Positions 28,079 to 33,566 are shown, counted from the stretch's first letter. The stretch is 59,885 bases of DNA from Alphaproteobacteria bacterium (GCA_016869375.1 VGEH01000005.1:1-59885); one strand, 5' to 3'. The notes: generated from the sequence alone by a model not told the origin. Numbers and translations: made by a program.

Positions 28079-30142
28079 CTACTCCCTGCGTCGTCTCCGC
28101 CTTCCCTCGCCGCCCGCCGCCACCGTCTCCTTCCGCTCGGGGAGCTTCACCGCCGCCGCCAGGTTCGGGAATACGTCGACGCGATTGGGGAAGCCGATCG
28201 CGTTGACGAAATGCTCCTGGAAGCGCGGCTCGACCGCGGTCTCGATCTTCTCGATCCGGCGGACGAGCCCCTCGATCTCGCGGCGATGGCCGCGGTTGAG
28301 CAGCGCCATGCGGGCACCAGTACCGGCGGCGTTGCCGACCGCCGAGACCTTGTCGAGCGCGCAGTCCGGCACGAGGCCGATGATCATCGCGTGCTTCGGG
28401 TCGATATGGCTGCCGAAGGCGCCGGCGAGCTTGATGCGGTCGACCTTGTCGATGCCGAGCTTGTCCATCAAGAGCTTGCACCCTGCATAGAGCGCCGCCT
28501 TGGCGAGCTGGATCGCTCGCACGTCGTTCTGCGTCACCTTGATCTCGACCGGCTCGGTGCGCAGCACATAGGAGAAGGTACGCCCGTCCGGGACGATGCG
28601 CGGCGTCCGTGCGGCGAGCGACCCGTCGATCATGCCGTCATGAGTGATGACGCCGGCCAGGAACAGCTCCGCCACCGCCTCGATGATGCCCGAGCCGCAG
28701 ATGCCGGTGACGCCGACACGGTCGACCCCGATATCGAAGCCTTCCTCGTCCGACCATTGGTTAACGTCGATGACCTTGATCCGCGGCTCCAGGGTCTCCA
28801 GATCGACGCGCACGCGTTCGATCGCACCCGGCGCGGCGCGCTGACCGGAGGAGATCTGCGCCCCCTCGAAGGCCGGTCCCGTCGGCGAGCTTGCGGCAAG
28901 CAAACGGTCGGCGCTGCCGAGCACGATCTCGGCATTCGTGCCGACATCGATGACCAGCGTGATCTCCTGCACCTTATGCGGCGCTTCGGCCAGGGTCACC
29001 GCCGCCGCGTCGGCGCCGACATGGCCGGCGATGCACGGCAGGATGTAGGCGCGGCCGGACTTCAGGATCGGCAGGCCGAGACCCTGCGCACGCAGGTCGA
29101 GCGCCTGCGAGACGGCGAGCGGGAACGGCGCCTGGCCCAGCGGCGTCGGATCGATGCCGAGATAGAGGTGATGCATGATCGGGTTGCCGACCAGCACCGC
29201 CTCGACGATTTCTTCCTGTGCGACGGCGCCCTGCCCGGCAACGCGGCCGATCAGCGTGTTGACGGCATCGCGCACGGCATCGGTAAGCGCGCCCCGGCCG
29301 TCCGGGTTCATCATCACATAGGACACGCGCGACATCAGGTCTTCGCCGAAGCGGATCTGCGGGTTCGCGGTGCCGGCCGACGCGACGGTCCTACCAGACA
29401 TCAGGTCGACGAGATGGCAGGCGATCGTGGTCGAGCCGATATCGACGGCGACGCCGAACAGCCGCTCGCGATAGCCAGGCCAGACGCCGACGACGCGCGG
29501 CCGTCCGCCATCCTGATGCACGGCGACGGTCGCCTTGTACCCGCCCTTGATCAGGGCCGGCTGCACGTCGGGCAGGATCGCCACATCGATCAGCACGTCG
29601 GCGATGCCCCATTTCTCGCCGAGATGCGCGATGACGCGATCGAGATCGCCATTCGGGACTGCCATGTCCGGCGGATCGATCTCGATGTAGTGAAGATGCG
29701 TGGCAAGGTCGCGAACGATGACCCGTGTCTCCGCGCGCTTGCGGACGACCTGGGTGTTCACCGCGACATCGGCCGGCACATCGATGACGATGTCGCCCAG
29801 GATCTTCGCCGCGCAGCTCAGGCGCCGACCGGCCGGCAGCGATCGGATATCGGCGTAGCGCTGCTCGGTCTCGGAACGCCCGGTCAGGCTGTCGGCGCGC
29901 GAGGTGATGCCGTGCTTGGCGAAGACGCCTTCGGCCACCTCGACCTGGCAGCGCCCGCAGAGGCCGCGGCCGCCGCAGACCGACTCGATGTAGACGCCGA
30001 GCGAGCGCGCCGCATCGAGCACAGGCGTGCCGGCGGCGAAGCGCCCACGCCTGCCGCTCGGCATGAAGATGACGAGCGCGTCGTCGGTCTTGGCTGGAGT
30101 ATCCGGCACCGGTCTATTCCGCGCGACCGCCGTTGGCGACAA
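28079..30142 (-). CDS. RamA/RACo-like corrinoid reductive activator: [2Fe-2S] ferredoxin domain plus ASKHA ATPase (DUF4445)
   Basis: N-terminal plant-type ferredoxin VIFMPSGRR...CGGRGLCGRCQV. Central and C-terminal ASKHA/DUF4445 blocks (AVDIGSTTIACHLVDL, VIDVGTNAEIVLG, ICGSGIIE). TTG start at 30142, alternative GTG at 30109. Confidence 0.85.
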   Translation of the reverse strand: MSPTAVARNRPVPDTPAKTDDALVIFMPSGRRGRFAAGTPVLDAARSLGVYIESVCGGRGLCGRCQVEVAEGVFAKHGITSRADSLTGRSETEQRYADIRSLPAGRRLSCAAKILGDIVIDVPADVAVNTQVVRKRAETRVIVRDLATHLHYIEIDPPDMAVPNGDLDRVIAHLGEKWGIADVLIDVAILPDVQPALIKGGYKATVAVHQDGGRPRVVGVWPGYRERLFGVAVDIGSTTIACHLVDLMSGRTVASAGTANPQIRFGEDLMSRVSYVMMNPDGRGALTDAVRDAVNTLIGRVAGQGAVAQEEIVEAVLVGNPIMHHLYLGIDPTPLGQAPFPLAVSQALDLRAQGLGLPILKSGRAYILPCIAGHVGADAAAVTLAEAPHKVQEITLVIDVGTNAEIVLGSADRLLAASSPTGPAFEGAQISSGQRAAPGAIERVRVDLETLEPRIKVIDVNQWSDEEGFDIGVDRVGVTGICGSGIIEAVAELFLAGVITHDGMIDGSLAARTPRIVPDGRTFSYVLRTEPVEIKVTQNDVRAIQLAKAALYAGCKLLMDKLGIDKVDRIKLAGAFGSHIDPKHAMIIGLVPDCALDKVSAVGNAAGTGARMALLNRGHRREIEGLVRRIEKIETAVEPRFQEHFVNAIGFPNRVDVFPNLAAAVKLPERKETVAAGGEGRRRRRRE

Positions 30143-30410
30143 GAGCCTTCAGCTTTTCGTCGTCATACTCCGCCTCGAGCGCGGCGATCGCCGTCTCGAG
30201 CTCGGCTTTGAGATCGCTTCCGCACTCCTCCGACACGCGGCGGTATTCCTCGGTATAGGCATCGGCCGAGCGGGCGCCCGACTTCATTGCGGCGACGTCG
30301 ATCGCCTTGGCAAAGCGCTCGGACAGTTCGCGCTTTTCGGCCGTACGCCCTTGCCGCACAATGACCTGCGCGGGGATGTCGCGCCAAAAGATGGTGATAC
30401 GCTGCGCCAT
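30114..30410 (-). CDS. Small 'virulence factor'-domain protein (uncharacterised, corrinoid-cluster associated)
   Basis: 98 aa, MAQRITIFWRDIPAQVIV.... I recognise the family as a frequent neighbour of DUF4445 and MtrH-like genes. Function unknown. Confidence 0.5.
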   Translation of the reverse strand: MAQRITIFWRDIPAQVIVRQGRTAEKRELSERFAKAIDVAAMKSGARSADAYTEEYRRVSEECGSDLKAELETAIAALEAEYDDEKLKALVANGGRAE

Positions 30411-30449
30411 TCAGACTATGTCCTGTTCCGTACGATCTGCGAGGAATGG

Positions 30450-32826: not shown

Positions 32827-32864
32827 AGATCAAAGGTTTACGCGATCTTAAGGACTTGAAGGCC

Positions 32865-33566
32865 ATGGCCGACGGCGACGACATCATCCTGGACGAGCTG
32901 AGCGACGAGGAGCTCGTCAAGCAGATGCACGACGACCTCTATGACGGTCTCAAGGAGGAGATCGAGGAGGGCGTCCATATCCTGCTGAAGCGCAAATGGG
33001 AACCCTACCGGGTCCTGACCGAGGCGCTGGTCGAAGGCATGCGGATCGTCGGCATCGATTTCCGCGACGGCATCCTGTTCGTGCCGGAAGTGCTGATGTC
33101 GGCTAATGCGATGAAGGCCGGCATGGCTATCCTGAAGCCGCTGCTGGCCGAGACCGGCGCGCCACCGATCGGCAAGATGGTGATCGGCACGGTCAAGGGC
33201 GACATCCACGACATCGGCAAGAACCTCGTCACCATGATGATGGAGGGCGCCGGCTTCGAGGTCATCGACCTCGGCATCAACAATGCGGTCGAGAAGTACC
33301 TGGACGCCATCGCCGAGCACAAGCCGGACATCCTCGGCATGTCGGCGCTGCTGACCACGACCATGCCCTACATGAAGGTCGTCATCGACGCGCTCAAGGA
33401 GAAGGGCATCCGCGACGACATCGTCGTGCTCGTCGGCGGCGCGCCGCTGAACGAGGACTTTGCCAAGGCGATCGGCGCCGACAGCTATTGCCGTGACGCC
33501 GCCGTCGCCGTCGAGACCGCCAAGCAGTACATGATGCGCAAGCACAACCAGCGCGCCGCCAGCTGA
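32865..33566 (+). CDS. Corrinoid (cobalamin-binding) protein
   Basis: B12-binding cap followed by a Rossmann domain with the DxHxxG motif (GDIHDIGKN) and MSALLTTT. ATG at 32865 with AAGGA 10 nt upstream; the track used TTG at 32856. Confidence 0.9.
   Translation: MADGDDIILDELSDEELVKQMHDDLYDGLKEEIEEGVHILLKRKWEPYRVLTEALVEGMRIVGIDFRDGILFVPEVLMSANAMKAGMAILKPLLAETGAPPIGKMVIGTVKGDIHDIGKNLVTMMMEGAGFEVIDLGINNAVEKYLDAIAEHKPDILGMSALLTTTMPYMKVVIDALKEKGIRDDIVVLVGGAPLNEDFAKAIGADSYCRDAAVAVETAKQYMMRKHNQRAAS

Follow-up and report, generated by a model that had tools for sequence, protein, structure and literature searches.

Methionine synthases made as separate proteins, and shared with the demethylation of glycine betaine, have been described in marine roseobacters. 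In Phaeobacter inhibens, Price et al. 2018 (PMC5764234) reported a three-part methionine synthase composed of PGA1_c13370 (the homocysteine, or Hcy, module), c16040 (pterin module) and c13350 (B12 module), and their fitness data indicated that a RamA-like DUF4445 protein and a DUF1638 protein are needed as well. Mausz et al. (PNAS, September 2025, PMC12478193) found that Ruegeria pomeroyi DSS-3 knock-outs of mtgC (SPO2160) and mtgD (SPO1863) are methionine auxotrophs and do not grow on glycine betaine even when given methionine, and they assigned roles to the modules, with the MttB-family MtgB as methyl donor, the Hcy protein MtgE as acceptor, and MetF2 as the enzyme that oxidises methyl-tetrahydrofolate (methyl-THF). 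On N-osmolytes, the MttB-family proteins, MetF2, the RamA-like protein and DUF1638 of R. pomeroyi go up, and MtgE goes slightly down (PMC12478193). A P. inhibens preprint, using mtgB1 and mtgC mutants, confirmed the dual role of MtgC and identified MtgB1 among four MttB paralogues. Here we analyse a 59,885-nucleotide stretch of DNA from an Alphaproteobacteria bacterium (GCA_016869375.1, VGEH01000005.1:1-59885), referred to in its full length as the window, which we believe, with a probability of about 0.75, to encode a complete MtgBCDE-type modular cobalamin methyltransferase system, in which one corrinoid protein, MtgC, would act as the hub for both methionine synthesis and onium demethylation.

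The locus is a further example of the MtgBCDE design shown experimentally in marine bacteria in 2025 and not a new kind of system, and it extends the MtgBCDE systems of marine roseobacters and rhizobia to an uncultured freshwater lineage. The initial annotation of this stretch had already proposed a corrinoid methyl hub, and its account of the work of Price et al. 2018 is accurate. The hub is supported by the genetics of mtgC and mtgD in R. pomeroyi and by that of P. inhibens, and all of its parts are present in the window, but as an idea it is no longer new, having been published in 2025. What is at stake is the path of the methyl group, which may travel from MttB to the corrinoid and then to homocysteine or be taken by the Hcy protein straight from the onium donor. 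Because all the parts, the Hcy module included, lie compactly on the chromosome, the locus would also be a convenient one-fragment template for rebuilding the system.

Core proteins of the proposed modular methyltransferase

The window is 67% G+C, and real genes were therefore chosen through their third-position G+C and then named by profile searches. Four MetH-type modules had been annotated as separate genes, and the domains of all four were confirmed: MtgE/Bmt, a stand-alone homocysteine S-methyltransferase module of 335 amino acids (30450-31457, plus strand; PF02574, 2.4e-65); MtgC, a stand-alone corrinoid (cobalamin-binding) protein (32865-33566 with an alternative start at 32856, plus strand; B12-binding_2 and B12-binding); MtgD, a methyl-THF:corrinoid methyltransferase or pterin-binding module (49332-50273, minus strand; Pterin_bind, 2.1e-28; NCBIfam NF005719, 380 bits, cut-off 259); and a RACo/RamA-like ATP-dependent corrinoid-protein reductive activase made of a 2Fe-2S ferredoxin and an ASKHA domain (28079-30109, minus strand). 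Beyond that list, we found a DUF1638 protein (33566-34219, plus strand; PF07796, 2.7e-30), a small PF13769 ("virulence factor") protein of 98 amino acids (30114-30410, minus strand; 3.6e-20), a MetF2-like methylenetetrahydrofolate reductase (MTHFR) of the methyl-THF-oxidising type (50274-51164, minus strand; weak PF02219 match, 33 bits) and a DddP-like M24 metalloenzyme of 416 amino acids (31576-32826, plus strand; Peptidase_M24 and Creatinase_N). Two non-pyrrolysine MttB-superfamily substrate:corrinoid methyltransferases complete the set, namely MttB1 (23668-25245, minus strand, 525 amino acids; PF06253, 2.7e-205) and MttB2 (34216-35772, plus strand, 518 amino acids; PF06253, 5.9e-195). The gene-level features of an MtgBCDE system were all found, that is, a corrinoid protein, a pterin module with MetF2, an Hcy module, a non-pyrrolysine PF06253 donor, and an activase with DUF1638. 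The corrinoid, Hcy, pterin, activase and DUF1638 genes each occur once in the window, and the single corrinoid protein of the earlier description is borne out by this count. The window open reading frames (ORFs) that were scanned contained neither a PF02965 activation domain nor metH or metE.

MtgC carries its DxHxxG motif as GDIHDIGKN, of the His-on type. The stop codon of mtgC overlaps the start of the DUF1638 gene (TGATG) and the stop codon of the latter overlaps the start of mttB2 (ATGA), and mtgC, the DUF1638 gene and mttB2 are therefore translationally coupled. MtgE has the zinc motifs GANCG and GGCCGT, and its C212, C278 and C279 show no variation across 20 homologues. Its assignment to the Hcy family of MtgBCDE systems is based on the score against NF005718 (508 bits, cut-off 338) and on 64% identity to Sinorhizobium meliloti Bmt; the name of NF005718, "betaine--homocysteine S-methyltransferase", is an annotation without a tested mechanism behind it.

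Two further observations concern the 3' end of mtgE. The last 35 or so residues of the protein (31351-31457) run past the MetH Hcy domain and are conserved in the 20 homologues, with R301, P302, G312, L314, P317 and P318 invariant and an Arg-rich end following; the tail might serve to dock the corrinoid protein. In addition, a GC-rich inverted repeat (GGGGGCGATGTCGCCCCC, 31464-31481) lies 7 nt past the mtgE stop and has no T-run. This repeat might separate the expression of mtgE from that of the genes downstream, in keeping with the opposite directions in which MtgE and MtgBCD are regulated in roseobacters.

The activase consists of an N-terminal Fer2 (2Fe-2S) domain followed by RACo_linker, Raco_middle and RACo_C_ter domains. 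It scores 371 bits against the AcsV model and 113 bits against the RamA model, both under the cut-off. A RamA-like activator had been proposed for this gene, and while it is an activase of the ATP-dependent class, these scores place it nearer to RACo than to RamA. The ORF itself spans 28079-30142 on the minus strand, with a probable start at 30064 or 30109, the latter being the JGI call on an identical contig. Upstream of it, on the same strand, lies the PF13769 gene, whose homologues neighbour an activase, MTHFR or pterin gene at 25 of the 80 related loci as well as in S. meliloti; its product, which none of the publications consulted mentions, may be an unrecognised accessory of the corrinoid system.

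The MTHFR-like gene lies directly upstream of mtgD, and its stop abuts the mtgD start. The best PDB match of its product is 7XG9 (2.3e-47), whereas classical MetF matches at 6e-9 or weaker. The 7XG9 structure is the MTHFR of Sphingobium SYK-6, which oxidises methyl-THF and pairs with THF-dependent demethylases, and because this enzyme runs in the oxidative direction, the window gene fits a catabolic exit from methyl-MtgC through methyl-THF to methylene-THF.

The MttB enzymes and their donor substrate

The two MttB ORFs are uninterrupted, flank the cluster and encode proteins 51% identical to each other. That they might be pyrrolysine MttB enzymes was ruled out, as there is no in-frame UAG and both fall far short of the TIGR02369 cut-off of 525 bits (MttB1 at 307 bits, the other at 283 bits). 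MttB1 matches 4YYC of S. meliloti at 3e-119 and Desulfitobacterium hafniense MtgB (DhMtgB) at 6e-103, and MttB2 matches 4YYC at 1.6e-116. Picking et al. (JBC 2026) reported that DhMtgB holds glycine betaine through Y97 and F356, by cation-pi contacts, and through R312 and H348, which bind the carboxylate, and that substitution of any of these four residues impairs activity. The sequences of DhMtgB and S. meliloti 4YYC were reconstructed from alignments, and we then aligned them with both window proteins and with 53 MttB genes from related loci.

At positions Y97/R312/H348/F356, MttB1 reads A-R-H-G, MttB2 G-R-H-G, and the S. meliloti type Y-R-H-G, so that neither window enzyme carries the D. 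hafniense-type residue set for glycine betaine. All the MttBs aligned retain both R312 and H348. Position F356 is Gly in all the alphaproteobacterial ones, which also have a Trp four residues before it (position 352, Ile in DhMtgB), and orthologues of MttB1 and MttB2 have Ala, Gly or Ser at the position of Y97. Tyr97 is instead kept in the MttB encoded beside mtgC in S. meliloti and in most rhizobia, and MttBs of that type are 44-45% identical to DhMtgB, compared to 36-37% for MttB1 and MttB2. Based on these residues, MttB1 and MttB2 are probably not orthologues of the glycine betaine MtgB. Because R312 and H348 are retained and Tyr97 is lost, their donor substrate likely carries a carboxylate and may be something other than glycine betaine, and both the MttB subfamilies and the DddP-like gene embedded in the cluster point to substrates beyond glycine betaine.

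A hydroxyproline-betaine epimerase (HpbD) was also considered for the enolase-superfamily gene at 26481-27611, near mttB1, since such an enzyme would have pointed to proline betaines as substrates; it was rejected because its best PDB matches are unnamed enzymes of the mandelate-racemase and acid-sugar-dehydratase types, with no recognised HpbD among the best 60.

Arrangement of the genes in relatives

Relatives of the Hcy protein were sought with a single genome representing each species, and the 80 best loci were retained, most of them from Hyphomicrobiales and at 60-70% identity, a sample that is biased to the closest relatives; each locus was then searched with the window proteins within 10 kb of the Hcy gene. 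An MttB gene was present in 53 of the 80 loci, the corrinoid gene in 37 and DUF1638 in 36, followed by PF13769 (25/80), the activase (16/80) and the pterin gene (15/80). The exact gene order of the window recurs in relatives whose MtgE is 86-94% identical; MAGs with this order include GCA_041906305.1 and GCA_947485285.1. Because this order recurs, and because the parts also lie together in many Hyphomicrobiales genomes and around bmt in S. meliloti, the arrangement is, by these comparisons, not due to chance. The Hcy gene of Paracoccus, on the other hand, sits in a housekeeping context without a nearby MttB, in agreement with the scattered layout of roseobacters, and mixing of MttB genes with the split MetH is thus a trait of Hyphomicrobiales-type genomes and not a universal one. 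The initial annotation had regarded this physical mixing as new, a view that does not survive the frequency of MttB genes near the Hcy gene and the co-location already published for S. meliloti.

A DddP-like gene in a possible conserved catabolic module

The M24 protein encoded between mtgE and mtgC, a position that is kept in relatives, matches the DddP structures 4B28 and 4RZY at about 1e-98. The binuclear-metal ligands and the candidate bases Y366 and D377 of RdDddP are known (PMC4108388), and all eight sites examined are identical between RdDddP 4B28 and the window protein, that is, the ligands D295, D297, D307, H371, E406 and E421 as well as Y366 and D377. The protein nevertheless stays under the cut-off of the NF043017 DddP equivalog (414 bits vs 600), and its close homologues (at least 73% identity, among the best 120 clusters) bear only generic names, either M24 or Xaa-Pro peptidase.

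Three loci with M24 homologues on long contigs were compared. In the first (L089, from a metagenome-assembled genome, or MAG, found through an 82%-identical M24 protein) the gene order is that of the window, and in the second (L091) the genes follow each other as activase, PF13769, mtgE, M24, mtgC, DUF1638 and MttB. In the third (L090), the M24 gene lies directly upstream of an MttB gene, without mtgE or mtgC alongside, and the locus keeps a second MttB, an Fe-alcohol dehydrogenase, an enolase-family gene, a DAO-GcvT fusion, a 2-oxoglutarate-Fe (2OG-Fe) oxygenase and an Opp-type transporter. Phyllobacteriaceae have a 49%-identical M24 gene that comes after MttB1-like and DAO-GcvT genes and is upstream of mtgE. 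The recurrence of the M24 gene beside MttB genes, with and without mtgE and mtgC, points to a conserved module for catabolism that, in the lineage of the window, would have received the split-MetH genes as an insertion. This DddP-like M24 module is not mentioned by Mausz et al. or in the other publications consulted.

Comparison with described systems

The systems of R. pomeroyi and P. inhibens are built from the same separate proteins as the window, including a RamA-like activase, DUF1638, and a pterin module beside a MetF2-type MTHFR, and the same one-hub logic has been proposed for them to join methionine synthesis with demethylation. Their genes are scattered, however, whereas mtgE, mtgC, DUF1638 and MttB are on one strand in the window, with the DddP-like gene inserted; they belong to marine roseobacters, whereas the window host is a freshwater organism, probably related to Hyphomicrobiales and known from sequence; and the window MttBs belong to Tyr97-lacking subfamilies. 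The split synthase of P. inhibens as reported in PMC5764234 is likewise made of Hcy, pterin and B12 proteins helped by RamA-like DUF4445 and DUF1638 proteins, but no link to MttB was drawn there, and its Hcy gene is in a housekeeping context.

In S. meliloti, at the bmt locus (Barra et al. 2006, discussed in PMC12478193; record CP090106), MtgBCDE, the pair of reactivation genes and the cob operon were described by Mausz et al. (PMC12478193) as lying together, and "Bhmt" was recast by them as MtgE. In the annotated record, the locus holds the same eight kinds of parts within about 18 kb: bmt, MttB, the cobalamin-binding protein, DUF1638, the PF13769 protein, an MTHFR, the methyl-THF:cobalamin methyltransferase and an ASKHA activase. 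The window proteins are orthologous to those of S. meliloti, with identities of 83% for MtgC, 76% for MtgD, 64% for both the activase and MtgE, 56% for DUF1638, 55% for PF13769, and 40-42% for MttB. There, however, the MttB keeps Tyr97 and is divergent from the corrinoid gene, bmt is about 6 kb off among unrelated genes, cob genes are adjacent, no DddP-like gene is present, and the MTHFR is of another type, as the MetF2 of the window has no tblastn match at that locus. As a side observation, the record used (CP090106.1, PLSDB), which includes the bmt and cob genes, bears the label S. meliloti plasmid pSymB; its size of 3.7 Mb suggests that it is in fact the chromosome, mislabelled.

The anaerobic MtgB/MtgC/MtgA/RamQ systems of D. 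hafniense and Eubacterium limosum similarly combine an MttB-superfamily enzyme, a cognate corrinoid protein, a methylcorrinoid:THF methyltransferase and an ATP-dependent activase, but they have no Hcy module, their corrinoid protein is of another clade (PMC12478193), and DhMtgB, at the low identity given above, has a Tyr97 and a Phe356 that the window enzymes do not keep. Canonical MetH covers the four chemistries encoded in the window, and its Hcy, pterin and B12 domains are homologous to those found there; it is, however, one polypeptide reactivated by a PF02965 domain that depends on S-adenosylmethionine (AdoMet), whereas the window has separate genes and a RACo-type ATPase.

Discussion

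According to the reading that we favour, MtgC would cycle between Co(I) and methyl-Co(III). It could be loaded by MttB1 or MttB2, which would move a methyl group to it from a carboxylate-bearing onium compound, or by MtgD, which would methylate it from methyl-THF. Unloading would also take two routes, as MtgD could pass the methyl group to THF, the MetF2-type MTHFR then oxidising methyl-THF into the one-carbon pool, or the zinc-activated homocysteine thiolate of MtgE could accept it to form methionine. Hub molecules that had become Co(II) would be returned to Co(I) by the RACo/RamA-like activase and DUF1638, perhaps with the PF13769 protein, in place of the AdoMet domain of MetH, and downstream, the two DAO-GcvT enzymes and SoxBDAG would strip the remaining N-methyl groups. 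The parts and their motifs, the single hub gene, the coupling, the orthology to S. meliloti and the conserved order are shown by the sequences, and a requirement for MtgC and MtgD in both processes has been shown by others in relatives; we infer that MttB1 and MttB2 use MtgC as partner, that their donors belong to the substrate class named above, and that methyl groups may pass directly, without folate, from MttB through MtgC to homocysteine, a route proposed in the literature.

Several points weigh against this reading. On glycine betaine, R. pomeroyi and P. inhibens lower MtgE and raise MtgBCD (PMC12478193; P. inhibens preprint), a pattern that fits competing complexes and not a dedicated route from betaine to methionine. 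Purified P. inhibens MtgE/Bmt, according to Narvaez-Barragan et al. (FEBS J 2025), makes methionine from betaine or dimethylsulfoniopropionate (DMSP) without cobalamin. metH is often also present in Hyphomicrobiales (PMC12478193), which means that the role of housekeeping methionine synthase may not fall to the split enzyme. Finally, Tyr97 is absent from both window MttBs, whose subfamilies differ from that of the S. meliloti MttB beside mtgC.

With these points in mind, it is conceivable, although in our judgement rather unlikely, that the parts are shared without useful flux from MttB to homocysteine, so that MttBs, MtgC, MtgD and MetF2 would be purely catabolic, MtgE would be fed through methyl-THF and MtgD, or a canonical MetH encoded elsewhere would serve, and the co-location would reflect B12-dependent genes inherited together. 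The opposite regulation of MtgE and MtgBCD in the two roseobacters, the common occurrence of metH together with mtgBCD in Hyphomicrobiales (PMC12478193), the M24-MttB module of L090 that lacks adjacent mtgE and mtgC, and the GC-rich hairpin past the mtgE stop, which hints at a separate transcript, all speak for it; yet mtgE stands in line with mtgC, DUF1638 and mttB2 on one strand, in an order kept in several lineages, no chemical obstacle keeps methyl-MtgC from reacting with MtgE, wherever its methyl group came from, and the betaine-dependent methionine phenotype of S. meliloti, as reinterpreted by Mausz et al. (PMC12478193), fits direct transfer. Very unlikely, in our opinion, is that the 335-residue Hcy protein is mainly a cofactor-independent onium:homocysteine methyltransferase, with glycine betaine or DMSP as direct donors and no corrinoid in that step, even though this activity and the hub are not mutually exclusive. 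When MtgE was aligned with human BHMT (sequence identical to PDB 8D45) and with two MetH Hcy domains, it had, like MetH, D, G, T, N and G at BHMT W44, Y77, Y160, F74 and H218, the first two of which we take to be the binders of the betaine carboxylate. The betaine-site residues, the BHMT-specific insert and the C-terminal oligomerisation arm of the animal and SAR11-type enzymes are thus missing from MtgE, while the Zn(Cys)3 site and the equivalents of the homocysteine-binding D26 and E159 are kept, features that MetH has as well, and its PDB matches are to MetH Hcy domains (5e-39) well ahead of BHMT (2e-16) and MmuM (7e-12). Mausz et al. (PMC12478193) likewise found the betaine residues to be kept only by SAR11-type Bhmt, and, according to that paper, the S. 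meliloti bmt mutant still catabolises betaine if given methionine. The methionine auxotrophy of P. inhibens corrinoid and pterin mutants (PMC5764234), moreover, is not explained by a stand-alone enzyme on betaine-free media. What speaks for direct transfer is the NF005718 match and the identity to S. meliloti bmt already mentioned, the DddP-like and DddL-like genes in the neighbourhood of MtgE, and the P. inhibens work cited above, where the purified enzyme needed neither THF nor cobalamin; in the part of that report describing the assay, it is an end-point fluorescence kit, with no kinetics given. The initial annotation had offered a corrinoid-independent Bmt as its own competing explanation, which has since gained this published in vitro activity and is weakened by the MetH-type residues at the betaine sites.

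A reading in which the split-MetH genes were merely inserted, in this lineage, into a pathway that acts on some onium compound but not on glycine betaine, made up of the two MttBs and their partners (the DddP-like M24 protein, DAO-GcvT, 2OG-Fe oxygenase, Fe-alcohol dehydrogenase, enolase-superfamily protein and Opp-type transporter), deserves more weight, and we would place it only somewhat short of an even chance. It accounts for the replacement of the DhMtgB Tyr97 by Ala or Gly in both MttBs and its loss in their orthologues while R312 and H348 are kept, for the closer resemblance to DhMtgB of the Tyr97-bearing S. meliloti type, and for a module that recurs with and without mtgE and mtgC and includes a highly conserved M24 family with generic names only. 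F356, however, is absent from all the alphaproteobacterial MttBs aligned, the S. meliloti type included; the aromatic cage therefore differs anyway, and the loss of Tyr97 may not exclude glycine betaine. The DAO-GcvT and SoxBDAG neighbours, furthermore, fit the breakdown of glycine betaine to dimethylglycine and sarcosine, and sequence by itself names no substrate. A bolder combination of the two ideas, which we consider decidedly unlikely, is that the Tyr97-lacking MttBs, the M24 protein, DAO-GcvT, the 2OG-Fe oxygenase and the Opp-type transporter form an undescribed, conserved aerobic pathway for a non-glycine-betaine onium compound that is wired into the corrinoid hub of methionine synthase and supplies the methyl group of methionine without folate. 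DMSP, beta-alanine betaine and a methylated peptide-like osmolyte are examples of what the substrate could then be. Between these alternatives, the MtgC-centred system remains the reading that we prefer.

Genomic context and source organism

Profile searches of the window ORFs indicated that the region from 16 to 58 kb is occupied by genes for the breakdown of methylated amines. It begins with soxBDAG, encoding a heterotetrameric sarcosine oxidase (16121-21257, plus strand; DAO, SoxD, Fer2_4/SO_alpha_A3/GCV_T and SoxG), and between mttB1 and the activase gene lie an Fe-alcohol dehydrogenase, the enolase-superfamily protein and a cupin (together 25287-28078, plus strand). Past the core cluster, a DAO and GcvT fusion similar to dimethylglycine/sarcosine dehydrogenase, a THF-dependent oxidative N-demethylase (35769-38195, minus strand; DAO, FAO_M, GCV_T and GCV_T_C), is convergent with mttB2 and is conserved in relatives. 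It is followed by the 2OG-Fe oxygenase (about 38209-39240, minus strand), the Opp-type ABC transporter (39466-45124, plus strand), a DddL-like cupin (45462-46109, minus strand; Pfam DMSP_lyase, 124 bits) and a second DAO and GcvT fusion (46876-49287, minus strand) that is 57% identical to the first. Several hydrolases are encoded between the MTHFR-like gene and that for a GbcA-like Rieske oxygenase (56937-58136, plus strand), which scores 437 bits against the GbcA model, with a cut-off of 670.

An Rfam scan of the whole window gave no cobalamin riboswitch or other RNA family at gathering score, and a tRNA scan gave no tRNA genes. Between 27500 and 36500, a promoter consensus scan found no promoter-like site, and a terminator consensus scan found one terminator-like site, located within the activase gene, while shuffled sequences gave more.

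With regard to the source of the DNA, JGI lake-metagenome contigs are identical to it across the Hcy gene, the nearest named Hcy proteins come from MAGs labelled Alphaproteobacteria (94% identity), and the nearest cultured matches, from Methylovirgula, Labrys and Prosthecomicrobium, are about 70% identical. The organism is therefore an uncultured freshwater alphaproteobacterium, probably in or near Hyphomicrobiales.

A few minor observations can be added. With the DddL-like cupin, which has no NCBIfam match, this freshwater genome has a second DMSP-lyase-like gene, and the gene for the Rieske oxygenase, whose product resembles the GbcA subunit of glycine betaine monooxygenase, is preceded by a gap of only about 95 nt. 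The catabolic region is bordered by a PIN-domain gene (21451-21867, minus strand) on one side and by a Phd/YefM-like antitoxin gene with a small ORF (58249-58988, plus strand) on the other, both of which probably belong to toxin-antitoxin pairs.

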